Source of the DNA: a virus
Reading direction: 5' to 3' (one strand)
IMG/VR virus record: IMGVR_UViG_3300009506_000018
Coordinates: 3,251-67,250 of that record
Length of the DNA stretch: 64,000 nucleotides
Positions 5-64,000 of this stretch are shown piece after piece. The notes under the pieces are model-generated. The model made no database searches. It worked only from the letters and a program-made list of their open reading frames with translations, and was not told the DNA's origin. Both the position numbers and the translations under genes were made by a program. How positions within the stretch are numbered: the stretch's first letter is position 1; the number at the start of each line of letters is the position of its first letter.

Positions 5-589
5 ATGGCAAACGTAGACGCGCCATTCGGTTTCCGCCCGAACGTCCATCAGGTGGGTGGTTGTCCGAATAGGCTGAATGCGTACGAAATTGCCGATGGT
101 TACACCACGAGCATCTTCTCCGGTGATCTGGTCCGATCCGATACCACTGCTGGTGGTAGGACGATCGAGCTGGCCCCGGATGGGACGGCTGCTCGCATCC
201 TCGGCGTCTTCGCCGGGTGCCAGTATGTCGATGCTCAGGGTGACGTGAAGTTCAGCCAGTACTGGCCCGCCAGTACTGCGCTTGCAACCGGCACGGTAGC
301 CACGGCATACGTGTACGACGACCCGGGCCTCGAATTGATCGCGCAGATTACGACCGTCGCTGCGGCGGACGTGGGCGCGGCTTTCGAGTGGCAAAACGGC
401 ACAGGCAATGCCGCCAACGGCAGGAGCGGTGGTTACATCGATCAGGCCCAGACGACAACTCCCCAGATTCGCATCGAGGGACTGTCCGAGGGCATCGATG
501 GCATCGCTCTTTCCGCGTACGGTGCCTTCGCCAAAGTTCGCTGCCGCATTCTCGCGCATGAGAAAGCTGCAGCCCTGACTGCGTTTTAA
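5..589 (+). CDS. Putative capsid decoration/minor capsid protein
   Basis: 194 aa, MANVDAPFGFRP N-terminus, directly upstream of MCP; function inferred from position. Confidence 0.6.
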   Translation: MANVDAPFGFRPNVHQVGGCPNRLNAYEIADGYTTSIFSGDLVRSDTTAGGRTIELAPDGTAARILGVFAGCQYVDAQGDVKFSQYWPASTALATGTVATAYVYDDPGLELIAQITTVAAADVGAAFEWQNGTGNAANGRSGGYIDQAQTTTPQIRIEGLSEGIDGIALSAYGAFAKVRCRILAHEKAAALTAF

Positions 590-604
590 CGGAGGGTAAT
601 CACG

Positions 605-1519
605 ATGTCAGTAATGAATCGCGCAACCTTCCGCAAAGAACTGCAGGAAGGTCTGAACACCGTCTTCGGAATGGAGTATCGCCGCTATCCCAACGAGTGG
701 CGTCCGCTCTTCGAAGTCGCACAGTCCAACAAGGCGTACGAGGAAGACGTGCTGCTCGCTGGTCTGGCCGGAGCGCCGGTCAAGCCCGAGGGTGGCCCGG
801 TGTCCTACGATGCCGGTGGCGAGGCATACGTCAGCAGGTACGTCCACGAGACGATCGCGCTGGCGTTTGCCCTGACCGAGGAAGCCGAGGAGGACAACCT
901 CTACGGATCGATCGGTGGCAAGTATGCTCGGGCGCTGGCCCGGTCCATGCAGCACACGAAGGAAGTGAAGGGCGCAGCCATCTTCAACAATGGCTTCGAC
1001 GCGAACTATCCGGGTGGTGATGCGGTACCGCTGTTCAGCACCGGGCATCCTCTCTGGGGCGGAGGCACGCAGGCGAACACGTTCGCCACGCAGGCCGACC
1101 TCTCGGAGACGTCGCTGGAAGAGGCGTTCATCGCCATCAGCAAGTTCGTGGACGAGCGGGGCATCCCGATCGCCGTCCGGGCTCAGAAGCTGGCAATCCC
1201 GTCAGACCTGATGTTCGTGGCCGAACGACTGGTGTCTTCGCCCTATCGTCCGGGCACCGCTGACAACGATGTCAACGCCATGAAGTCCATGGGCATGCTC
1301 CCCGGTGGCGTCCACGTGAACCACAGGTTCACCGATGCCAACGCATGGTTCCTGCTCACGGACTGCCCGGATGGCCTGAAGCACATGGTGCGGAAGGGTA
1401 TCCAGCGTGGCATCGAAGGCGACTTCGAGACGGGCAACATGCGGTACAAGGCGCGTGAGCGGTACAGCTTCGGCTGGTCCGACTACCGTGCCGGGTTCGG
1501 CAGCTCAGGCACCGCGTAA
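605..1519 (+). CDS. Major capsid protein (HK97-fold, Mu gpT-like family)
   Basis: 304 aa; RATFRKELQEGLNTVFGMEY...KARERYSFGWSDYR pattern typical of this MCP family; GGAGGG SD. Confidence 0.88.
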   Translation: MSVMNRATFRKELQEGLNTVFGMEYRRYPNEWRPLFEVAQSNKAYEEDVLLAGLAGAPVKPEGGPVSYDAGGEAYVSRYVHETIALAFALTEEAEEDNLYGSIGGKYARALARSMQHTKEVKGAAIFNNGFDANYPGGDAVPLFSTGHPLWGGGTQANTFATQADLSETSLEEAFIAISKFVDERGIPIAVRAQKLAIPSDLMFVAERLVSSPYRPGTADNDVNAMKSMGMLPGGVHVNHRFTDANAWFLLTDCPDGLKHMVRKGIQRGIEGDFETGNMRYKARERYSFGWSDYRAGFGSSGTA

Positions 1520-2446: not shown

Positions 2447-3199
2447 ATGGCGACCAGCGGGACATTTCTCTGGTCCCCCGAGCTGGCCGACATGGTTGAC
2501 GAGGCGTTCGAGCGTGCGAAGGTCGATCCTTCCACGCTCGGATACCGTCATCTCCAGTCTGCTCGGCGGTCGATCAACTACATGCTCGCCGACTGGGCGA
2601 CGCGGGATCTTCAGGAGTGGAAGATCTCCCGCGTGGACTTGCAGACGATGGCGAGTCTCGGCACGCCCATCACGCAGGGCACGGCGACTTATACCCTGTC
2701 AGCCGAGTTCCTAGATGTCATCAACGTCTTCCTCAGGCGTGACGGCATCGATACGCCGATCGAGTTCATGTCCCGGCAGGAATGGGCAGACATCCCAGAC
2801 AAGACCGTGCAGGGCCGACCTGACAGGGTCTTCGTTGACAAGCAGCGCGATGCCATCACGGTATCGTTCTGGACGGTGCCGGAGAATTCCACCGACGCCG
2901 TCTACTTCGACATCGTCAGCAAGTTCGAAGACCACGACGCAGCTGCAGACAACCCCGACGTCCCTTACTACGCCCGCGAGGCTTTCGTGGCGGATCTGGC
3001 GGCAAGGCTGGCCGAGAAGTTCTCGGATCCCGGGGTCGAGGACCGGCTCAGGATCAAGGCCTACGGACACCCGGCCAACCCGGGAGACAAGGGCGCTCTG
3101 GGCCGGGCGATCTCCGCGACCCGTGAGCGTGGCGACGTCAGGATCGTGCCATCCAGCAACTGGGCCCGCAGGCGTGGCACATCGAGGAGCTATCGCTGA
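2447..3199 (+). CDS. Head-tail adaptor / tail tubular protein A-like
   Basis: 250 aa; MATSGT..DEAFER..ARRSINYML..W pattern of podovirus adaptor proteins. Confidence 0.7.
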   Translation: MATSGTFLWSPELADMVDEAFERAKVDPSTLGYRHLQSARRSINYMLADWATRDLQEWKISRVDLQTMASLGTPITQGTATYTLSAEFLDVINVFLRRDGIDTPIEFMSRQEWADIPDKTVQGRPDRVFVDKQRDAITVSFWTVPENSTDAVYFDIVSKFEDHDAAADNPDVPYYAREAFVADLAARLAEKFSDPGVEDRLRIKAYGHPANPGDKGALGRAISATRERGDVRIVPSSNWARRRGTSRSYR

Positions 3200-5982
3200 T
3201 GGCTCGGTCGGGCAGGCGACAATACGCGAAAGGACGGCATGCGCTGGCTGAATGCCAGCGGTCCGGCCAGAAGATGCGTTACCGGGATCTGGTCGAAGAC
3301 GGCCACGTCCCGGGCCTGCTCGTGCATCCTGACTGGTGGGAGCCGAAGCACCCGCAGGAGATCCCGGTCAGCGTGGATGATCCGATCGCGCTGTGGCGTC
3401 CCGCCCCGGAGATCTCGAAGCCGCCGGGCGAGGGCGATGATCCCCGTACCGGATGCTGCAATCTCGATCCGTCCACCCCGGCGAACACCACCACCTCGGG
3501 CAGTCTGTCTGGCGGGGAGACGATCGTCGGCATCAACGATGCCCTCAGGTTCGACGAGGCGCAGGGCAGGGAGACGTTCGCTTACATCCAGATGGACAAC
3601 GGCGATTGGTATTGCTCGCCGATCGTGGTACCGATCCGCTGCACGCCGACCTACGTGATCAACCTGTCCTATCCGTTCGATGGGCCATCGCCAGTTTCTC
3701 CCGGCAACAAGGTCATTGCCGGGAACGACACCAATTTCGTACTGGCTGCCGCCGCCGTACCCAGCTCGCTCAGCGAGAGCGGCAGCGCCAGCTCGGAAAC
3801 CAGCGCGATCCAGATCAATGCCGTGGGCGGATGCCCGCCGTATCTCTACCAGTGGGAGTGGGTCACTCAGCCTGACCCGCTGATCACGATCACTTCTCCG
3901 ACGTCATCCAGCTCGACACTGACCATTGGTGCGCTGGCCGATGGTAATTACTCCGGCGAGATACTGGTCACGATCACGGACACTGGCAGTACCCCGCAGG
4001 AGACGACAGTGAACATCCCGGTCACGATTACCCTCGCCAGCATCCTCGGTCTGATCTTCGGTGCCGATTACAACACCGGCACGGGCGATCAGAGCGTTCT
4101 GACCTCCGAGGACAATCTGACCACGCTGACAAATTTCAACCTCGACGAGGGCGCAGACAACTGGCAGAACCAGCAGGCGATGGGCTACGGCAATTACGTG
4201 GTGACCCAGTCAGACGAAACAGAAGGCTGGTTCTCCCGCGATAACGGCGCGACCTATCATCGCATCAATACCTACGCTGATACCGTCACCGGCCTCGGTA
4301 ATGGCGGCGGCAACTCGATGATTCCCTACACCGTGACGTACGGCACGGAGTTCGACATCAACGCCCTGATCCGGGCAGATGGTGTGGAGATCATCAGCGA
4401 CAAGATGGGCAACAAGACGATCAGCTCATCCGGCATTGCTCCGATCTATTCCGATGAAACCGGCGTGATCGACTTTGGCGATGCGTCCATCCAGCTCAAT
4501 GGCAATGGCACGGGTTACCTGCGGGCCTATAACGCGGCTGACAGCGATTTCACCGCCGACGAGTACACCATCGAGTTTACCTACAAGCCGGGAACGGGTG
4601 ACCTGACTGTCGATGCCACCACCGAGAAGATCATCCTGCACTCGGACAAGACATGGGGCACGGCAGGCAGCTGGTATATCTCGTTCATAGAAAGTGCGGC
4701 CAGCACGGGTGGTATCCGGTTCGTCTCTCACAACGGAGCTACCGTCGAGGCCGAAGTGGCGCTGGCCGTATCGACCGCGAATGAGCTGGCGAGCCCGAAT
4801 GGTTACCGGCACTTCATGGTGTCCCGCTGGGTTGATCATGCTGGCGATGCCCGGTTCGCAGTGCGGGTCGGTGCAACAGGCAATGTCGCCCAGACGCTGA
4901 CCGGAGCCACGCACCAGATCGACAAGAACTTCAGGATCGGCAGTGATGGTTCCGGTAGTTCCACCGGCAGAAGCACGATTGCCAACCTCGGCTGGGCGGA
5001 CGGGAAGATTCAGGACATCCGGGTCACGGACGGCTTCGCCCGTGGCGCTTATTTTGGCTCTGCCATGGGCACGGGCGACAACCGGATGTACCAGCAGGAA
5101 TTCTGGCCCACCGGCACGACCGAGGACATGCTGGTCTTCAACCGTACCGACTCGAACAATGCTGGCACGGTCATTCAGGCAGTGAATGATTTTGATGTTC
5201 ATATTCAGGGCTCGTGGTTCTACCGCTCGACCAACAACATCGAAGGGGCGAAAGCCCTGTACGGAATGACGCTGCATAACGGCGAGTTCTACGCATGGGA
5301 GGGCACCGCTTATTTCGGGACTTCGTCAACGAACAGGCCAATGCGGATCACGAAGTGGAACCCGGCAACGAAGCTGACTCCGTGGAGAACGGCGGACATC
5401 ACCGAAGTAGTGGACCTGACGACGTTGGTGCCGGTGGGGTGGACGAGCTACTGGTACACCCAGCTAAGTGGCTATCCAACAGGCGATGGCGCGAATATCT
5501 GGATCGGCAGTGACGGCACTAACCTGATCGCCAGCATCCTGTCGATTCAGGACACCCAGCGGGCGATTGCGTGGTCGGCCAACAACGGTTCCACGTGGAA
5601 CGTGAACAGCAACGAGATCAGCTGGGCATCGACGCTTGATTATCCGATGCAGATGGTGGTGGCCCCTGACGGTTATGTCTACTTCGTGAGCTTCGGTGGC
5701 GTCTGGTATCCGTCAGGCCCGGTATCCTCGAACCCGACCTACACCTACACCAACATCCGCTCGCTGTACACGTCGAACCGTGGCAATTGCAATCAGGGGA
5801 TCTGGGCGAACAACCGGCTGTATATCGTCGGTCAGTCCAACTTCTCCCCGGCCACGGCGGCGCTGTGGTATTCCGATGATCAGGGGGCCAGCTTCACGCA
5901 GATCACGCCGATCGAGCAGTCCGCCCTGACCGGGGAGATCAAGCTGAATACCGTGGGCACCTACAACATAGGGACACCCTGA
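3199..5982 (+). CDS. Conserved small neck protein fused to Ig-like, LamG and Asp-box propeller domains
   Basis: 927 aa; N-terminal KGRHALAECQRSGQK..WEPKHPQ module; Asp-box-like FSRDNGATY, WSANNGSTW, YSDDQGASF; LamG-like segment ~4460-5045. Confidence 0.65.
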   Translation: MARSGRRQYAKGRHALAECQRSGQKMRYRDLVEDGHVPGLLVHPDWWEPKHPQEIPVSVDDPIALWRPAPEISKPPGEGDDPRTGCCNLDPSTPANTTTSGSLSGGETIVGINDALRFDEAQGRETFAYIQMDNGDWYCSPIVVPIRCTPTYVINLSYPFDGPSPVSPGNKVIAGNDTNFVLAAAAVPSSLSESGSASSETSAIQINAVGGCPPYLYQWEWVTQPDPLITITSPTSSSSTLTIGALADGNYSGEILVTITDTGSTPQETTVNIPVTITLASILGLIFGADYNTGTGDQSVLTSEDNLTTLTNFNLDEGADNWQNQQAMGYGNYVVTQSDETEGWFSRDNGATYHRINTYADTVTGLGNGGGNSMIPYTVTYGTEFDINALIRADGVEIISDKMGNKTISSSGIAPIYSDETGVIDFGDASIQLNGNGTGYLRAYNAADSDFTADEYTIEFTYKPGTGDLTVDATTEKIILHSDKTWGTAGSWYISFIESAASTGGIRFVSHNGATVEAEVALAVSTANELASPNGYRHFMVSRWVDHAGDARFAVRVGATGNVAQTLTGATHQIDKNFRIGSDGSGSSTGRSTIANLGWADGKIQDIRVTDGFARGAYFGSAMGTGDNRMYQQEFWPTGTTEDMLVFNRTDSNNAGTVIQAVNDFDVHIQGSWFYRSTNNIEGAKALYGMTLHNGEFYAWEGTAYFGTSSTNRPMRITKWNPATKLTPWRTADITEVVDLTTLVPVGWTSYWYTQLSGYPTGDGANIWIGSDGTNLIASILSIQDTQRAIAWSANNGSTWNVNSNEISWASTLDYPMQMVVAPDGYVYFVSFGGVWYPSGPVSSNPTYTYTNIRSLYTSNRGNCNQGIWANNRLYIVGQSNFSPATAALWYSDDQGASFTQITPIEQSALTGEIKLNTVGTYNIGTP

Positions 5983-6650
5983 TGGCGTACAAGACGACAG
6001 CAACTGACCTGACCGCGAACCTTCAGGCATGGCTTGAAGATGACAGTTCGGAATTCGCCGCCTCGATCCCCCAGATCATCAATCTCGGCGAGCTTCGGCT
6101 GCTGAAGGATCTCGATCTGACGATCTTCGATTCCGCCACCACCGCCAGCACGGCGGTCAGTAATGACATCCTCTCGAAGCCAGCGGCGTACACCAGCGAC
6201 TTCCAGCTGGGGGTGCGCTGGATGTACATCTCGGTCAGCGGGGAAACAAAGTGGCTGGAGCTGCGCTCGATCGATTTCGTGCGCGACTATCTCAATGGCG
6301 TGGACGGGCTGCCGAAGTACTTTGCCGAGGACGGCGAGTCACAGTGGCGGCTGGCCCCGAGCCCGGATGCGATCTACACCGTGAACATCAATTTCCGGTC
6401 ACGCCCCTCGCCACTGGTGGTGACGACCAACGAGAGTAACTGGCTGAGCGACAACGCGGCAGACATCCTCCAGTACGCCTGTCTGGCGGAGGCCGAGAAG
6501 TTCGTCAAATCAGACGACAGGATCCCGATCTGGGAGAACGATTATGTGGCGCGTTTCCCGGCGGCGAAACGTGAGATCGACGGGCTCATAAACACCCGCT
6601 ACAACCAGCTGGGCATGACCGCCATGCCGTTTCCGCAGGGAGCTAGATAA
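5982..6650 (+). CDS. Tail tubular/adaptor protein
   Basis: 222 aa; L...QAWLEDD..F...IPQII..GE.RL pattern; GLPKYFA...W.LAP.PD..Y. Confidence 0.65.
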   Translation: MAYKTTATDLTANLQAWLEDDSSEFAASIPQIINLGELRLLKDLDLTIFDSATTASTAVSNDILSKPAAYTSDFQLGVRWMYISVSGETKWLELRSIDFVRDYLNGVDGLPKYFAEDGESQWRLAPSPDAIYTVNINFRSRPSPLVVTTNESNWLSDNAADILQYACLAEAEKFVKSDDRIPIWENDYVARFPAAKREIDGLINTRYNQLGMTAMPFPQGAR

Positions 6651-7582
6651 TGTCTCAGACGACTAAGAACCTGCGTCTCACGATGCAGGACACGAACGAT
6701 AACCCGGATACGTGGGGGACCGTTCTCAACACCAGCATGTTCAAGCTGCTGGAAGACTCGATCGTCAAGCGGACGAAGATCGATGGCTTCGCGCTGGGGA
6801 CAACTATCGCGCTCGCCTACGGCAATGGCACTACCACCGAGCCGGACGCTCGCGGCATGCTGCTCGACTGCTACAACAATCCCGGTGGCCCGGTCACCAT
6901 TACGGTGCCGATCGAGGGCGCTGGTGCTTACGGCAACGCTGATGAGTACGGCAAACTGTACATCGTCAGGAACGGGTTCGATGGCGGCTACGACATCACC
7001 TTCCAGACTTCAGGCGGGGCCAGCGTCACGGTGCCCAACGGCGAATCCCGCATCGTGTTTGTGGACAGCGCGGGGGCGTACTTCGTAAACCCGGGCGATG
7101 CCACTTTCGCCACCAGCTCAACCAATGCCACCAATGCCGACAACCTGTTGTCAGACGGCGGTTATGTGACCGGGGAGAGCTTCGTCAGGACCGACCTCGG
7201 TGTCGGCAGCTCGAAGATTCAGAAGTTCACGCAGGGGCAGAATGCCGTCCGGCAGGCCCTGACGTGGGGCGGAACCATTGCCGTGCCGAACAAGGATTCG
7301 AATTCCTTCGCGGTGACGGTGACCAGTGCGATCGCGGCGACATTCTCTAACCCTTCGACCCAGACCGCTGATTCTGACGGGCAGGTGATTCGGATCATGA
7401 TCCACCATCAGACTTCCGGGGCAACGATCACGTGGGGCACTGCCTACGCATGGCCGGGCGGCACAGCCCCGACGCTGACCACTGGCACCGCTGGCGCGGT
7501 GGACTATGTCGCCTTCGAGTATTTCAGGGACTATCCGGGCGGCGGCAAGTGGGTCGGCTCGGCTTTGCTGGATGTATCGTAA
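6650..7582 (+). CDS. Tail fibre/anchor protein
   Basis: 310 aa; NLRLTMQDTNDNPDTWGTVLN N-terminal anchor motif; C-terminal WPGGTAPTLTTG...AVDYVAF fibre-tip module. Confidence 0.7.
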   Translation: MSQTTKNLRLTMQDTNDNPDTWGTVLNTSMFKLLEDSIVKRTKIDGFALGTTIALAYGNGTTTEPDARGMLLDCYNNPGGPVTITVPIEGAGAYGNADEYGKLYIVRNGFDGGYDITFQTSGGASVTVPNGESRIVFVDSAGAYFVNPGDATFATSSTNATNADNLLSDGGYVTGESFVRTDLGVGSSKIQKFTQGQNAVRQALTWGGTIAVPNKDSNSFAVTVTSAIAATFSNPSTQTADSDGQVIRIMIHHQTSGATITWGTAYAWPGGTAPTLTTGTAGAVDYVAFEYFRDYPGGGKWVGSALLDVS

Positions 7583-54384: not shown

Positions 54385-55023
54385 ATGACGAAGCGCGAAC
54401 TGGCCTTCTGTGATTACTACGTCGAGCGACGCAGCGCAGGAATTGCGGCGGAGCTGGCCGGGTATTCGCCGGGCTGGACGAAGCGGGCCTACCAGATCCT
54501 CCAGCGACCGCACATACGGGAGCGCATCGCTCAGCTGTCGAAAGCGGTGGAGGAAAGGTCAGTCACCAACGGTGCCGAGGTCGTCAACGAGATCGCGAAG
54601 GTGGCCTTCCTCGATGTGGCCTCCTTCCTGAAGGACGATCCGCACCAGCCGGGGGGCAAGATCTGGAAGTCTCCAGACGAGCTGACACCCGAACAGCGGG
54701 CAGCCATCTCACAGGTCCACATCCACGACTTCGAGTTCGTGGCTGGGCAGGACGACGACGGCAACGATGTCGTCGAGATCCGCCAGACCTACAGCTACCA
54801 GTTCCACGACAAGATGAACGCGCTGGAGAAGCTCGGCAAGCACTTCCAGATCTTCGGCGAAACCCACACCACCAACATCAATCTCAACCGTTTCTCGAAC
54901 CTCCCAGAAGACGTGCTGCACAGGCTGGAAGATGAGCTGCGCGACGTGCTGGAGGGCGAGTACCGGGTGATGGAGCCTGCTGATGCCCCGCGTCTACCTG
55001 ATGATCGAAGACCTAAGCACTGA
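54385..55023 (+). CDS. terS: Terminase small subunit
   Basis: TKRELAFCDYYVE..AAELAGYS..AYQIL..I..RI; HDKMNALEKLGKH. Confidence 0.88.
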   Translation: MTKRELAFCDYYVERRSAGIAAELAGYSPGWTKRAYQILQRPHIRERIAQLSKAVEERSVTNGAEVVNEIAKVAFLDVASFLKDDPHQPGGKIWKSPDELTPEQRAAISQVHIHDFEFVAGQDDDGNDVVEIRQTYSYQFHDKMNALEKLGKHFQIFGETHTTNINLNRFSNLPEDVLHRLEDELRDVLEGEYRVMEPADAPRLPDDRRPKH

Positions 55024-58426: not shown

Positions 58427-59049
58427 TGGCCTACCGGGGGCAGGAGCGGGTCGCGTTCGACACCGGATACAACGACGCGCTGTACGGTCGTCCACGCGAC
58501 AACCCGTACAACCTGTCCACGGTACCGAAGAGCTACAACGCTTACGAGGAAGGCTACGACGAGGGCGAGGGGTCCACGGATCCGCCGAAGGGTCTGCCGG
58601 GACCAGCAGGACCAGCCGGGCCGACAGGTCCGCAGGGACCGCAGGGCCCAGCCGGGACGAACGGTGCTCCCGGGACCAACGGCACCGATGGCATCGACGG
58701 CAACCAGACGTACGTGACGGCTGGCCCGCCTGCGTCAGGACTGGGTCAGGACGGCGACATCGCGATCGACTCGACCAGCGGCGAGGTGTGGAACAAGGTC
58801 GCTGGCACGTGGGTACTGCAGGGAGGATTCGGCACAGTGGCACTGGCGACTCAGGTGGACTTCATCGACGGCTCACCGCAGATCATCTACTCGGGCAAGG
58901 CCAACCCGGGCACGGCGACGTCAGCGTCATCGTGGCAGATCAGCAAGATCGTGCTGCAGTCCGACAACGACGTCTCCGTGGAATGGGCAGACGGTGACGG
59001 CAACTTCGACAACGTGTGGGACAACCACCTGAGTCTGGCGTATTCATGA
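58426..59049 (+). CDS. Rmf/CrpP-like N-terminus, collagen repeat and fibre-type C-terminal domain
   Basis: AFDTGYNDALYGRPRDNPY..AYEEGYDEG; (G-X-Y)n at 58591-58704; YSGKANPGTATS..SWQI..WADGDGNFDNVWD. Confidence 0.65.
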   Translation: MAYRGQERVAFDTGYNDALYGRPRDNPYNLSTVPKSYNAYEEGYDEGEGSTDPPKGLPGPAGPAGPTGPQGPQGPAGTNGAPGTNGTDGIDGNQTYVTAGPPASGLGQDGDIAIDSTSGEVWNKVAGTWVLQGGFGTVALATQVDFIDGSPQIIYSGKANPGTATSASSWQISKIVLQSDNDVSVEWADGDGNFDNVWDNHLSLAYS

Positions 59050-59456
59050 TCAAGATCGTCACACGCTGGGACGCGAGCCAGATGACGCCTGAAGTGGAGT
59101 TCAGGATGTGGCGTCAGCTGATGGGTTCGTTCGACGTCCAGCAGCTGATCGTGACGCCGACCATCTACGGATTCGAGAACGGCATCATGCGTCAGGCCGA
59201 CACCTTCGAGGAGGCGCTGGAGCTGTGCGGCGACATGCCCCGGGTGTTCCTCGAACCTGATGGAATGAACAACCTGTACGAGCTTCCGCGTGGCACCGAC
59301 ATGGCGCTGATCATCGGTAACACCGAGCACTCGAACATGGCGTTCGCCGAGCCAGACGAAACGTACCGCATCGACACTCCCGCCGGGCCGAAGCGTTCGC
59401 ACCTGTACGGGCCGAATGCCGCCGCCATCGCGCTGGCCTACTACTGGGGGCAATGA
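59046..59456 (+). CDS. SPOUT (SpoU/TrmH-like) methyltransferase-fold protein
   Basis: 136 aa; MWRQLMGSFDV, VFLE, LIIGNTE, YRIDTP..SHLYGPNAAAIAL mirror TrmH motifs 1-3. Confidence 0.6.
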   Translation: MIKIVTRWDASQMTPEVEFRMWRQLMGSFDVQQLIVTPTIYGFENGIMRQADTFEEALELCGDMPRVFLEPDGMNNLYELPRGTDMALIIGNTEHSNMAFAEPDETYRIDTPAGPKRSHLYGPNAAAIALAYYWGQ

Positions 59457-61537
59457 TGGCAACCGACCTGCGCACCCAGATCACCGGCTTCGACTCGACC
59501 ACCAACGTCACCACCACGGGCTCCGGCCCGACGCTGCAGACAGCGACCGGCCTGTGGTACGAGACGACCGGAGCGATGTCGAGCCAGTGGTCGAACACCG
59601 GGCAGGAAGAGATCCACGAGTCCAGCCTGACCAGCCGCAACCTGTCTGATGCGGTCCTGTATGGACTGATCAAGGACAACCTCGTCGATACCTACGCCAA
59701 TCAGGGCATCCAGCTCGTGATCGGCGATGGCACGGACCTGATCGGTTACGACGTCGCAGGAGCGGACGCGCAGGGCATCCCGCTGGAGAACTACTACTTC
59801 GGGATCAAGCTGGACGTGTCGGTGATCGTGGCGACGCCCGGCACCGCGTTCACCGCCTTCGCCGGGTCGGAAGCTAACCTCGACCAGACCGCGATCACGC
59901 AGGCGGGCTATGGCGGCATCCACCTGTCGAAGGCCTCGGGCAACTCGGTCAACTGCTTCTTCGATGCGCTGTACTTCGGTGCCAACGACAGCTATCACCT
60001 GCGCATCAACGGCGGCACATCTGGAACGCCAGAGACGACCGCCGACGTGGTCGCCGACGATGTCACTGGCGGCTGGGGCATCATGTCCAACCCGGTGGGC
60101 TCGGTGTTCTACTTCTTCGCCCCGACCGAGTGGGGCGAGCCGACCGCCAACGCCGACGTGTACTTCAACATCGATGGCGAGACATGGCTGTGGCTGGGAG
60201 ATAACGGCGGCGGTCGGGCGATCGACTTCAATCACTGGCTCTTCAGGCTGGTCGGCAACGCCACCGATACCATCGACATCTCATGGTCGAACCTGTCGAT
60301 CACATCGGTTGGCGTTGCGGCGACGTTCTTCTGCGGCGTGGACGGCTCGCTCAACGACACCAACGTCGATAACATCGCCTTCGACAGCGTCTCATTCACC
60401 GACCTGTCCACCATCGGATTCCCACCGCAGAACGCCAACCACACGTTCGACAACATCACCTTCAACACGTGTCTTGCGGCTTACCCGAACAGCTGCAATG
60501 GCACGAACTGGATCTTCAACGACTGCACCTCGATCTCCGGCGCAATGGGGCTGGGGGTGGCGGGCGATTGCGACAACCTCGACGGGGTGATTTTCAATTA
60601 CGTCAGCGGTACGCCGCGACACGCGATCATCATCACTGCGACAGGCACCTATGACTTCAACAACTTCTTCTTCAACGGTTACGGCGCGGATGGCTCGGCT
60701 ACCGCCGCCGTGAACAACCAGTCTGGAGGAGCAGTCACGATCAACGTCCTCGGCGGCGACACACCCACAGTGCTGAACGGAACCAGCGCGACCACCACCA
60801 TTAACAACTCGGTCACGGTCACAGTAGATGGCGTGGCAGAAGGCACAGCAATCAAGGTGATCGCCAACGAAACAGCAGGGACAGTCACCGCCGGGGACGT
60901 TCTCGGACAGGGGCTGGCTGACAATACGGGAACGTACAGCTTCAGCCAGAACTACGAAGGCGCGTTCGGCGCTGGCCTCGACGTGCTGATAGTGGCACGC
61001 AATCAGGGCCTGCCGAATGCAGCTATCGCGGATGACGGTGGCGTGCTGACCGACGAAACCACCGCCGCGAATTCAGGCACCAGCAACGACATGACATTGA
61101 CCCCTGCTTCACCAGCGGTCAACGATGCGTACTACTGGGGGCACTCTGAGCAGTTCCCACAGATGAAGGTCAACGTCAGTACAGCTGGCTCGGGCCTGAC
61201 CATCACGTGGGAATACTGGAACGGTTCGACGTGGACGGCGCTGTCCGGTGTCACTGACGGCACCAGCAGCTTCACCACCAGCGGACTGAACTACGTGAGC
61301 TGGACTTTGCCGGGCAACTGGGCGACCACCACGGTGAATTCGCAGGGTCCGTATTACTACGTCCGGGCGAGGCTGTCCGCAGTCTCGACTCCGGTACAGG
61401 CTACTGGCCGATGGTCGTCGCTGGACGTGACCCGCTATCTGCCGATTCCGCCACAGGGTGTGCTGCAACGAACGATCACGTCTTCCGGCCTGACCGTCAC
61501 GCTATCGCAGCAGGAAGACACGATCTCAACATTTTGA
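59453..61537 (+). CDS. Virion adhesin/tailspike-like protein with beta-helix segment
   Basis: 694 aa T/G/N/D-rich; repeated short F/I-x-N/D strands; WEYWNGSTWTAL module. Confidence 0.55.
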   Translation: MMATDLRTQITGFDSTTNVTTTGSGPTLQTATGLWYETTGAMSSQWSNTGQEEIHESSLTSRNLSDAVLYGLIKDNLVDTYANQGIQLVIGDGTDLIGYDVAGADAQGIPLENYYFGIKLDVSVIVATPGTAFTAFAGSEANLDQTAITQAGYGGIHLSKASGNSVNCFFDALYFGANDSYHLRINGGTSGTPETTADVVADDVTGGWGIMSNPVGSVFYFFAPTEWGEPTANADVYFNIDGETWLWLGDNGGGRAIDFNHWLFRLVGNATDTIDISWSNLSITSVGVAATFFCGVDGSLNDTNVDNIAFDSVSFTDLSTIGFPPQNANHTFDNITFNTCLAAYPNSCNGTNWIFNDCTSISGAMGLGVAGDCDNLDGVIFNYVSGTPRHAIIITATGTYDFNNFFFNGYGADGSATAAVNNQSGGAVTINVLGGDTPTVLNGTSATTTINNSVTVTVDGVAEGTAIKVIANETAGTVTAGDVLGQGLADNTGTYSFSQNYEGAFGAGLDVLIVARNQGLPNAAIADDGGVLTDETTAANSGTSNDMTLTPASPAVNDAYYWGHSEQFPQMKVNVSTAGSGLTITWEYWNGSTWTALSGVTDGTSSFTTSGLNYVSWTLPGNWATTTVNSQGPYYYVRARLSAVSTPVQATGRWSSLDVTRYLPIPPQGVLQRTITSSGLTVTLSQQEDTISTF

Positions 61538-61553
61538 CCATGGAGCTATTTGA

Positions 61554-64000
61554 ATGACCACACTCGCAATCTTGAACGGGGACTTCGAGATCCTGTTCGA
61601 AGACGAGACGGTTGGCTCGGGTGTGACTGGTATGCGGATGATCCGCCGTGCTGCCGGAGCCTCGTCAACCATCTACACGACCCTGCAGCTTTACTCTGCT
61701 GTCGCCGACGCGGCGGACGAGTTTCAGGCGATGGGATTCCGCAACCCGATGCTCCCGGTGACGCCGAATGCGTTCACCATGGAGAACAAGTACTTCATCC
61801 CGAGATCCTCGACCGAGTGGCTGAAGGAAGGCACGATCTCCGCCGACTGGAGTTATACCGCTTCGCCTGACAATGTCGGCAACGGTGTGGTCTGCGTCAC
61901 GTGGAGCGGCGGCACCGGGCCTGTCACTGGCGACATTGGCAGGCTCATCACGCAGGGCGACACCTCCGACACCGGCACCCTGCTGGACTTCGAGACACTG
62001 CCGGACGGCAGCACCGTGGTATGGATCAGGCCGGATGATTCGACGCCCTCCACGGGCGACGTGTTCGACGGCACCGGCACGCTGATTGTCTCCGGCGGCA
62101 CGATGTCGGCTACCAGCTCCAGCAATGCCCTGATCGGCAACACCCGCTACACCGCCATTCAGGCCATCGGTAGCGTCCCGGCTGGTACCGAGGTCTACGT
62201 GTACCAGAACCGCTTCAAGCTGACAGACTGGGAAGGCAACTTCCAGTGGTGGTCCACTGACCCGACCGTGTCGCTGGGCATCATCTCGGTCCTCGTCAGG
62301 ACGCACATCGGTGCGGCTGCCCTGACCGCGACCAACGGCATAGCCGACTCGGACCTCGAAGTCTTCGCCAGACGCTACACGTCGCTGTACGACAACTTCC
62401 GACTGAACGTCGCAGGTGGCGGTTTCTCGGCCCTGCCGCTGGCTTCCAGCCCGGACATCAACAACACCACCGGCTACCAGACCTTCACCGGCTCGACAGG
62501 CACCGGCACATTCAACGTCGGCAATGCGATCTACGTGGGGGCCAGCTGGGCGGCAGCGACGAAGAGAGGCGTGCTGACGGCGGTAGGCGGCACTGGGGCG
62601 GCTCCGGTACTTGAGTACTACCTGATCGGTGATCTCACCGACTTCGCCGCCTCCGATGCGGTCAAGGAATACGACTTCACCACGCTGGCGGATGGCGATG
62701 CGACCTGTACGGCAGCAGCGCCGACCACCAACCTCGGGGGCCCAACCGACTCGACCTCCGGTGAAGGTGGCACGGTGACCATCTCCCTCGGCCACACCAC
62801 GGCAGACTTCGATGGCAATGGCTCGGTGGAGCCCTACTCGGTGACGGTCAACGCGCAGACCAACGTGCCGGTGGCGAAGGTCTACGAACGGCTCAAGTAC
62901 GTGACCCGGAGAGGCGCTTCCGAGACTGACCTGTTCGGAGCCGGGGTCGCCGTACCGGGCGAGTCTTATCGTGGACTGGAGGCGCTGTACTGGTACGACA
63001 ACCCGGTCGGCACTTTCACCGAGGGCGACAACATCACCGGAGCAGGCGGCTATACCGCCCGGGTGATCGCCGTGAACACCACGCCGTCTGGCGAGGGCGC
63101 ATCACAGGCGTACATCACGGTCACCGACCAGCAGACCTCACTGGATTCGGTGGCGAACAACGACACCCTGACCGATGAGTCCTCGGACACAGTGGACGCG
63201 GACAACGCGGGCGCTGGCGGAGCGTTCAAGTCCATCAGCTCGCCGAAGGCCAGCCCGCTGGGCACCTTCACGGGTACGGTGATCTTCGGCGCTCAGGGCG
63301 TGCTGTTCTCCAACATCGACAACGACCCGCAGGCCTACACCCTGACCGACGACATCGGCACGCTGCGACCGCCGCCGAATACCGTCACGATCCTCGTGGG
63401 CAACACGGCGTCCGGCGACCGGGTGCTGGTGGCACGCGACACCGGGACGGCTGGCGTGATTGACCGCGACCAGTTCGGCGGTATGACGGCCACGGCAGTG
63501 TCGGCAAAGTCGGTGACCGTGGGGGGCACGATCGACTCCGAGGTGCCGAGCGTGGGCGTGGTCAGGATCGTCGATACCGGCACGTTCGAGGAGCATCGCT
63601 ACTACTACAACAGCTACACCACGACAGCCTTCAACTTCATCGACATCACCGCCTCGGCGGCGACGGCAGGCACGTCTGATACCGCACTGGTGGATTCGAC
63701 AGCCACGTTCGTCACGGAAGGCGTGCAGGTGGGGATGCTGATCTACGTGGCGGGCCGCACCTCGACCTACGAGGTGGTGTCGGTCACCAACGAAACCAAT
63801 CTGGTCATCCAGCTGATCTACGGCGCTGGCGGATTCGTTTCGACCGATACCTACACCATCAACGAGACGATTCAGGCCTACGATACCGCTGACGACATCT
63901 ACGACCTGATCCTCGACTACGAGGCCACCACCACGTCGCTGTCCAACACCATCGTCAAGACCCCGGCGTCGAACTTCGGTGTGGTGGTTAACGTGCGACA
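61554..64000 (+). CDS. Large beta-rich virion-type protein, partial (runs off window)
   Basis: ATG at 61554 with GGAG SD; MTTLAILNGDFEILF...; frame spot-checked open at start, middle and window end; T/G/D-rich. Confidence 0.6.
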   Translation, partial: MTTLAILNGDFEILFEDETVGSGVTGMRMIRRAAGASSTIYTTLQLYSAVADAADEFQAMGFRNPMLPVTPNAFTMENKYFIPRSSTEWLKEGTISADWSYTASPDNVGNGVVCVTWSGGTGPVTGDIGRLITQGDTSDTGTLLDFETLPDGSTVVWIRPDDSTPSTGDVFDGTGTLIVSGGTMSATSSSNALIGNTRYTAIQAIGSVPAGTEVYVYQNRFKLTDWEGNFQWWSTDPTVSLGIISVLVRTHIGAAALTATNGIADSDLEVFARRYTSLYDNFRLNVAGGGFSALPLASSPDINNTTGYQTFTGSTGTGTFNVGNAIYVGASWAAATKRGVLTAVGGTGAAPVLEYYLIGDLTDFAASDAVKEYDFTTLADGDATCTAAAPTTNLGGPTDSTSGEGGTVTISLGHTTADFDGNGSVEPYSVTVNAQTNVPVAKVYERLKYVTRRGASETDLFGAGVAVPGESYRGLEALYWYDNPVGTFTEGDNITGAGGYTARVIAVNTTPSGEGASQAYITVTDQQTSLDSVANNDTLTDESSDTVDADNAGAGGAFKSISSPKASPLGTFTGTVIFGAQGVLFSNIDNDPQAYTLTDDIGTLRPPPNTVTILVGNTASGDRVLVARDTGTAGVIDRDQFGGMTATAVSAKSVTVGGTIDSEVPSVGVVRIVDTGTFEEHRYYYNSYTTTAFNFIDITASAATAGTSDTALVDSTATFVTEGVQVGMLIYVAGRTSTYEVVSVTNETNLVIQLIYGAGGFVSTDTYTINETIQAYDTADDIYDLILDYEATTTSLSNTIVKTPASNFGVVVNVR

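Follow-up and report, generated by a model that had tools for sequence, protein, structure and literature searches.

Why does a phage encode, directly upstream of its tailspike, a protein with the fold of an RNA methyltransferase? The question is raised by a gene for a 136-amino-acid (aa) protein, here called P0001, in a stretch of 64,000 nucleotides (nt) that we refer to as the window and that comprises bases 3251-67250 of the complete 72,059-bp virus record IMGVR_UViG_3300009506_000018 in IMG/VR. SPOUT proteins are textbook RNA methyltransferases, and their fold is known almost only from enzymes that use S-adenosylmethionine (SAM) to modify RNA. The original prediction read P0001 as a degenerate SPOUT methyltransferase that might protect transfer or ribosomal RNA (tRNA, rRNA) or methylate virion proteins. 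Our analysis supports the fold, finds most of the signature residues lost, and ties the gene to one module of the tailspike. The protein is more likely to serve the spike than to protect RNA, because most of the signature residues are lost and the gene is always tied to the tailspike gene.

The predicted fold of P0001 is an alpha/beta knot. The alignment-based AlphaFold2 model has a predicted local distance difference test score (pLDDT) of 93.8 and a predicted template modeling score of 0.88, and its best Foldseek matches are YibK, TrmL, CspR, TrmJ, Trm56 and TrmH (E 1.5e-6, TMq 0.76-0.77). VIA-align superimposes the model on Pseudomonas aeruginosa YibK with Z 15.1 and a root-mean-square deviation (rmsd) of 2.7 Å over 125 residues, and on Escherichia coli TrmL with S-adenosylhomocysteine with Z 14.1 and 2.5 Å over 129 residues. 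Model residues 1-136 span TrmL 1-147, and over 250 SPOUT chains reach Z>=8. For TrmL/YibK and CspR, which are tRNA Um34/Cm34 2'-O-methyltransferases (PDB 6qkv, 6qh8, 7e3s, 4jal, 1j85 and 8w9u), Z ranges from 15.1 to 13.6 and rmsd from 2.5 to 2.8 Å over ~129 residues; these are single-domain alpha/beta-knot proteins whose strands and helices follow one another as in P0001. The superposition on knotted YibK and TrmL is near-complete and sequential (125-129 of 136 residues), and because ~95% of the chain superimposes sequentially on knotted proteins, the same knotted topology is to be expected in P0001. The least confident part of the model is the loop that closes the knot pocket (residues 111-120, mean pLDDT 78). 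P0001 is ~20 residues shorter than TrmL, and by secondary-structure order the missing stretch appears to fall between b2 and b3 (elements in Table 1). AlphaFold and Foldseek had been named in the original prediction as the check on its SPOUT assignment, and the check came out for the knot. We consider the fold assignment, as read from the model, secure; in structural terms the modeled protein is a new, very divergent and minimal branch of the SpoU-TrmH class.

P0001 belongs to a family found almost entirely in uncultured phages. A word-indexed search with P0001 found 85 homologue clusters, with E values down to 1e-39, and 72 came out of an exhaustive HMMER search over 1.84 billion representatives. 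Genuine members are stand-alone proteins of 108-148 aa from metagenomes or viral contigs. No match was found by tblastn of P0001 against 50,697 deposited phage records, and no homologue from a cultured phage is known. In the ESM-Atlas, P0001 falls among unnamed clusters that are 93-100% viral. The sequence blocks first picked out as methyltransferase motifs (MWRQL.., VFLE, LIIGNTE and RIDTP..LYGPNAAAIAL) turn out to be, in that order, the conserved blocks of this family of ~85 clusters. Alignment A1 holds 79 core-clade sequences with 40-57% identity to P0001; 11 of its columns are invariant (W22, R23, Q24, A57, L69, E70, N97, I109, I128, A129 and L130), and the length of the knot loop, between TP and LYG, is variable. 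As a family these proteins are acidic, with a mean net charge of -5.4 and an isoelectric point of 5.3, compared with 0.1 and 7.2 for enterobacterial TrmL.

Fused forms were sought in a search of unrestricted length, and no genuine fusion to the spike or to another domain was found, because the long matches are tandem-repeat artefacts or a mis-called open reading frame (ORF). The metagenomic proteins P0112, P0146 and P0150 consist of tandem units of ~70-130 aa, and their E values of 1e-4 to 1e-11 against the 136-aa query come from numerous weak stretches that recur; we rejected them as false positives that inflate family counts. P0135 was rejected as a mis-called ORF that holds just the C-terminal two-thirds of a family member. 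About one third of the database homologues are annotated with a start at Met13 (window 59082-59084), giving proteins of 108-127 aa in which strand b1 would be lost, and Met13 is kept in 84% of homologues. These starts are probably mis-called, and an internal start is also conceivable.

Judged by sequence, P0001 stands outside both PF00588 and TrmL. P0001 matches no Pfam, PHROG or NCBIfam family at threshold, and NCBIfam, including its TrmL equivalog models, gives nothing at E<=0.1 for P0001, P0081 or P0042. Matches to SpoU_methylase (PF00588) below threshold occur in 5 of 79 homologues, the best at 17.6 bits and E 0.0043 against a gathering cut-off of 29.7 bits. These weak matches are colinear with the profile (positions 53-122 to 53-131 for the best), and weak matches to the Pfam RsmE family also occur among the homologues. 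A six-frame search of the phage's own genome with PF00588 gave 0 matches at E<=10. Searches of PDB sequences with phmmer and with the family profile gave chance matches only (RecA, a BMC-H fusion protein and DHR1). Identity to TrmL/YibK is 12-21%, with no profile-level signal: hhalign of A1 against E. coli TrmL, and against an alignment of 24 TrmL sequences (A3; low diversity, 82-100% identity), returned a probability of 1-3%, and we therefore derive no residue-level equivalence to the catalytic residues of TrmL/TrmH. A colinear match to Pfam DUF6016 (E 0.084) was set aside; it occurs in a single member of the SPOUT-like family, and DUF6016 has no literature. The description of the motifs as all degenerate was apt, since neither P0001 nor the family profile reaches any SpoU threshold.

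The gene is linked to the spike gene with great regularity. In all 19 loci anchored on the SPOUT-like gene that have enough downstream sequence (L006 ends too soon), the stop codon of the gene coincides with the start of a spike homologue or lies no more than a few bases from it. A spike-anchored search of IMG/VR yielded 43 loci, and a family member lies directly upstream (E 1e-8 to 1e-59) in each of the 34 viral loci with spike identity >=35% and upstream sequence. In 19 of these 34 the SPOUT-like ORF ends 3 nt beyond the first base of the spike match, as it does in the window. The predicted ORF in the window has the expected start and stop, and its proposed translational coupling on both sides is borne out by 4-nt ATGA stop/start overlaps at both junctions (Table 1). 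The tailspike gene has a further in-frame ATG at 59456, after the ATGA start. The seven most distant spikes (<=34% identity; L060-L063 and L065-L067) are preceded by unrelated small ORFs, with no family member within 4 kb, and the pairing therefore has a boundary. Among 185,579 GTDB species genomes there are two spike matches only, both on phage-sized contigs of metagenome-assembled genomes and both carrying the pair. The location of the pair varies: it lies between TerS and TerL in this phage and in L008, between portal and capsid in L007, and beside lysis genes in L001. The cassette of SPOUT-like gene and spike gene is a solid, new comparative observation.

The partner, P0153, is on the evidence of its model (Table 1) a tailspike-type receptor-binding protein. 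Its Foldseek matches are GH87 beta-helix glucanases, the K2-2, CBA120, AM24 and phiAB6 tailspikes, a chain of the LME-1 portal-tail complex, and CBM jelly-rolls. Together with the tail-fiber match of the gene upstream, this jelly-roll and beta-helix spike agrees with the virion or adhesin operon in which the gene was originally placed. P0153 has at least 249 homologue clusters, in which the N-terminal ~440 aa are conserved and the C-termini are variable, some with Big_1 domains. These spikes are mosaic: from phage to phage, the N-terminal ~440 aa recombine independently of the C-terminal ~265 aa. The N-terminus carries a nearly invariant D5-x-R7-T8 motif; residues 3-11 are modeled as ordered beta-strands (pLDDT ~91), not as a free peptide. 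Among the homologues P0157, P0174, P0187, P0225, P0253 and P0263, some have a 200-aa insertion between the modules and others have Big_1 C-termini instead.

The mosaic structure of the spikes provides a natural domain-swap series. Three loci (L024, L071 and L072) retain the C-terminal part of the spike (60-69% identity) and the neighboring 847-aa protein (56-63%). Identity in their spike N-parts is none, 31% and 25%, respectively, and that of their SPOUT-like proteins is not detected, 24% and 21%; the small upstream genes of L071 and L072 are recognized by the A1 profile (E 1e-9), and that of L024 is linked solely through L071 (E 2e-4). Four other loci (L018, L020, L022 and L069) are without the C-part, have no homologue of the 847-aa protein or only a fragment match of ~110 aa, and keep the N-module together with the SPOUT-like gene. 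From this series we conclude that the SPOUT-like gene belongs with the N-terminal jelly-roll/beta-helix module of the spike: it co-varies with that module (~440 aa), and not with the C-terminal module or with other neighbors. A gene that always lies beside one module of a receptor-binding protein and is inherited with it behaves as a spike accessory does. Such behavior is accessory-like and does not say what the protein does, and the class of spike accessories is functional, not based on homology. Co-folding of spike residues 1-460 with the SPOUT-like protein gave a score of 0.00 and a mark of 0.32, which is no verdict and counts neither way.

One divergent pair has an unusual setting. L023 (9625-11899 of contig_3, 602,396 bp, in ENA ERZ25073077) holds a SPOUT-like gene (E 3e-17 to the family profile) in which E70 is replaced by Ile, and a homologue of the spike of 632 aa. 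The pair lies between genes for Ile-tRNA and Arg-tRNA synthetases and genes for TatA and TatC, with no recognizable phage genes nearby. The contig could come from a cellular (small-genome) organism, a huge phage or a prophage remnant.

What remains of the SPOUT signature can be followed residue by residue. The motif-2 Gly (G91), the I..P after b6 (I109 and P112) and a C-terminal helix of small residues are kept in comparison with the TrmL consensus (F-G-P-E...I-P-M...S-M-N-L-S). Within A1, the Glu of motif 2 (h-h-h-G-x-E-x-x-G) is absent, with Thr or Ser in its place (G-N-T), and the S-x-N of motif 3 (I-P-M...S-L-N) is absent from the consensus. The Asn and Gly of motif 1 (N-x-G-x-x-x-R) are also absent. 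Helix a1 carries the core-clade invariant R23, and the catalytic motif-1 Arg of TrmH is also on its helix a1; R23 is at most a candidate counterpart of that Arg. Beyond the core clade we considered a wider family, made up of divergent representatives and of the small genes found upstream of divergent spikes. In divergent members that are still linked to a spike, R23 is replaced by K, W, E or G, E70 by I, V, T, Q, H or N, and N97 by L, M or P. W22, G91, P112 and a pattern of hydrophobic and small residues persist across the wider family, and no polar residue does. From these residues, the protein is probably non-canonical or catalytically dead.

Based on these results, our tentative preference, held with slightly more doubt than belief, is that P0001 is a SPOUT-derived, non-catalytic accessory dedicated to the spike, with the knot fold put to new use in assembly, maturation or attachment. 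We favor a non-catalytic accessory because every polar invariant is eroded in divergent members that are still spike-linked. The protein would descend from SpoU/TrmH-type methyltransferases, would now be the dedicated accessory of the tailspike encoded directly 3' of it, and might be made together with the spike from one late message. In YibK and TrmL the dimer is formed by helix a1 and the C-terminal helix, and the active site lies where the two subunits meet. By analogy, P0001 could form a homodimer through helix a1 (W-R/K-Q) and its Ala-rich C-terminal helix; core-clade invariants also fall on these two helices (W-R-Q; NAAAIALA). We suspect that the dimer acts on or with the N-terminal module of the spike, most likely helping maturation, assembly or attachment without catalysis, and that the old cofactor cleft and the dimer face might form a binding surface in place of a site for RNA methylation. 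That the SPOUT fold has been exapted across widespread uncultured podophages as a catalytically dead, module-specific partner of the tailspike, be it an assembly chaperone or a piece that attaches the spike to the virion, is a possibility we advance with clear reserve.

Several points weigh against this non-catalytic reading. Adjacency and co-variation are equally expected if the spike is the substrate of an enzyme. Co-divergence is also not strict: in L068 and L023 the spike N-part is fairly conserved (49-51%) and the SPOUT-like protein is more diverged. The core-clade invariants cluster in the three loops that make up the SAM pocket of SPOUT enzymes (FLEP.G, GNT...N and I..TP...YG.NAAA) and on helix a1, as they would in a live active site; from the alignment, this pattern could reflect such a site or merely a conserved dimer and knot. 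Furthermore, SPOUT enzymes bind SAM largely through backbone atoms, so that cofactor binding could survive the loss of side-chain motifs.

We consider unlikely an alternative in which P0001 is an active SAM-dependent transferase that acts on the tailspike or another virion protein, with the N-module of the spike perhaps modified co-translationally in the manner of Sfm1. The intact knot of the model, the core-clade invariants in the pocket loops and on a1, and the retention of G91 and the motif-3 I..P almost everywhere keep this idea alive, and the strict linkage and co-variation with the spike N-module, as well as the nearly invariant D5-x-R7-T8, would fit a pair of enzyme and substrate. However, the replacements of R23, E70 and N97 in divergent spike-linked members include charge reversals and hydrophobic residues, the knot loop varies in length, and the N-terminal stretch of the spike (residues 3-11) is modeled as ordered strands. 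What weakens the original proposal that the protein methylates virion proteins is the absence, in the wider spike-linked family, of any conserved polar residue. To our knowledge, Sfm1 of yeast is the one SPOUT enzyme that methylates a protein arginine, and it is a precedent for a SPOUT fold that acts on protein and not on RNA. It differs in having an extra C-terminal domain and conserved SAM-binding residues, and the likeness is one of description, not of sequence or structure comparison.

We find it improbable that P0001 is a TrmL/TrmH-like RNA 2'-O-methyltransferase that acts on host or phage tRNA or rRNA, for example by blunting anticodon nucleases, as first proposed, or by tuning late translation. 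The nearest structures are indeed tRNA wobble 2'-O-methyltransferases (TrmL/YibK/CspR), one homologue was auto-named TrmL by the Joint Genome Institute, and there are the weak Pfam matches to SpoU_methylase and RsmE. Some viruses also have canonical SpoU genes. Against these stand the lack of any Pfam or NCBIfam match at threshold, the failure of hhalign to find TrmL, and the absence of the motif-2 Glu and the motif-3 Ser/Asn. The protein is acidic, is smaller than any known SPOUT RNA enzyme and carries no RNA-binding extension, and there are no tRNA genes in the 64,000-nt window. The gene has never been seen without the spike and belongs to late structural operons; an RNA role does not predict that linkage, which is the only constant feature of the family. 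The proposed protection of tRNA or rRNA from anticodon nucleases is thus not supported.

We think it very improbable that the knot pocket serves a non-SAM ligand or a non-methyl SAM transfer (as in Tsr3/TapT-type aminocarboxypropyl transferases) on a small molecule or on a host glycan engaged by the spike: SPOUT-like folds do support non-methyl SAM chemistry, the knot is conserved, the core-clade pocket-loop signature (FLEP.G, GNT...N) is unlike that of SpoU and the spike has a glycan-enzyme-like beta-helix, but nothing positive indicates a particular ligand, conservation of the pocket-loop residues does not extend to the wider family, and the P0001 sequence has no signal peptide or sign of export for reaching a surface glycan.

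Comparison with known systems helps to place the cassette. P0001 shares with TrmL/YibK the motif-2 Gly, the I-x-(x)-P after b6 and the small-residue C-terminal helix. Unlike them, it is without the motif-1 Asn and Gly, the motif-2 Glu and the motif-3 Ser/Asn, is acidic and not neutral, and is encoded only beside a phage tailspike gene. Canonical SpoU/TrmH proteins of viruses (the Pithovirus and Yasminevirus proteins in BFVD, and an ESM-Atlas cluster of 64 members with PF00588, 76% viral) have the fold in common with P0001 but differ in being larger (155-285 aa), with recognizable PF00588 domains and no reported tie to a spike gene. A search of BFVD with the P0001 model found no phage protein alike; the single match at E<=0.001 is from a giant virus.

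A second comparison is with the accessories of fibers and tailspikes, such as T4 gp57A/gp38, lambda Tfa, the fiber chaperones of Mu and P2, and adaptors such as K1-5 gp37. Like the SPOUT-like protein, these are small proteins encoded beside a receptor-binding gene, inherited as a cassette and specific to one module. Fiber chaperones are usually encoded 3' of the fiber gene and act on the C-terminal part of its product, whereas the SPOUT-like gene is upstream and tracks the N-terminal module. We know of no fiber or spike accessory with a SPOUT knot fold. A literature search found nothing on SPOUT or SpoU with phage, tail or tailspike, nor on SPOUT with pseudoenzyme; matches to 'spout-like' and 'Spounavirinae' were rejected as coincidences of name.

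The known roles of the SPOUT fold would widen with a family in which the knot is kept, the catalytic signature is dropped and the gene is fixed to one tailspike module, and the receptor-binding cassettes of abundant uncultured podophages would gain a component so far unrecognized. If P0001 is a catalytically dead partner of the spike, it would give a SPOUT protein a structural or chaperone role for the first time and make up a new class of accessory to receptor-binding proteins. If instead it methylates the spike, this would be a rare enzymatic post-translational modification of a phage receptor-binding protein. There may be practical consequences as well. Recombinant expression of such spikes, for work on depolymerases or host range, may need co-expression of the upstream gene. 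The family is annotated as hypothetical everywhere because there is no Pfam, PHROG or NCBIfam model for it, and one could be built.

Table 1. The SPOUT-like gene, its junctions, its flanking genes and the predicted elements of the two proteins. Positions are those of the window, or residues where so marked.
Feature	Position	Strand	Evidence or remark
Collagen-repeat tail-fiber-like protein, 207 aa	58426..59049	+	Pfam Collagen E 2.9e-5; PHROG tail-fiber families E 1e-8
ATGA overlap, collagen-like gene stop / SPOUT-like gene start	59046..59049	+	
SPOUT-like gene, 136 aa (P0001)	59046..59456	+	ATG at 59046, TGA stop 59454-59456; ORF and translation
P0001, predicted elements	Residues: b1 2-7; a1 15-28 (W22-R23-Q24); b2 31-37; b3 48-50; helix 54-59		Model
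P0001, predicted elements, continued	Residues: b4 66-69 (FLEP.G); b5 86-90 (LIIGNT...N97); b6 106-108 (YRI.TP); C-terminal helix 122-133 (NAAAIALA)		Model
ATGA overlap, SPOUT-like gene stop / tailspike gene start	59453..59456	+	
Tailspike-like protein, 694 aa (P0153)	59453..61537	+	AlphaFold2 pLDDT 91.5; constant downstream partner
P0153, predicted domains	Residues: N-terminal jelly-roll ~1-230; parallel beta-helix ~236-460; C-terminal beta-sandwiches ~466-694		AlphaFold2 model
847-aa protein	61554..64000, runs 97 nt beyond the window end	+	No Pfam, PHROG or NCBIfam match

The other neighbors of the SPOUT-like gene are less constant than the spike. The collagen-like gene is the upstream neighbor in this phage only; upstream genes differ in L004, L007, L008 and the contig of P0045, and the 207-aa protein has no similarity to the product of the upstream gene of L001. 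A resemblance of the collagen-like gene to ribosome modulation factor had also been proposed, and the Pfam RMF match is insignificant (E 0.21, 12.1 bits against a cut-off of 27.9). The 847-aa protein follows the spike in phages with full-length spikes of ~700 aa and is absent from many loci that retain the pair. In a language-model search, its nearest viral clusters carry the tail-sheath domain Gp18_domIII_N (score 0.92, with a low shared-feature count). We treat this as a lead only, and it recalls the sheath-like appendages of some podophages.

Downstream of the spike, the genes in order are those for the 847-aa protein, for proteins of 191 and 227 aa, for the large terminase (Terminase_6C) and for an SU10-type portal. 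The small terminase gene lies upstream, at 54385, and the genes for the capsid, two SU10-type adaptor paralogues and other tail proteins lie at 0.6-20 kb. Roseobacter phage CRP-901/902, Pelagibacter phage HTVC023P/HTVC027P and phage DSL-LC04 have capsid proteins that share 52-56% identity with that of this phage. We considered and rejected a placement of the SPOUT-like/spike pair at the position of T7 gp11/gp12 (adaptor/nozzle): the SU10-type adaptors lie elsewhere, and the 694-aa protein has a tailspike-type beta-helix. The adaptor paralogues (Pfam PF24175, E 9e-8 and 3e-21), at 2447-3196 and 5982-6647, flank a 927-aa gene 3' of the capsid gene.

The ends of the virus record fall within a gene. 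An ORF of 833 aa with an SU10_portal match spans them (70282-72059 of the record, G000, joined to 1-868; 5479-7254 of locus L070), and a 144-bp 'direct terminal repeat' is located inside this portal ORF. The repeat therefore stems from overlap in the assembly of a genome that is circular or circularly permuted, and it does not mark physical ends.

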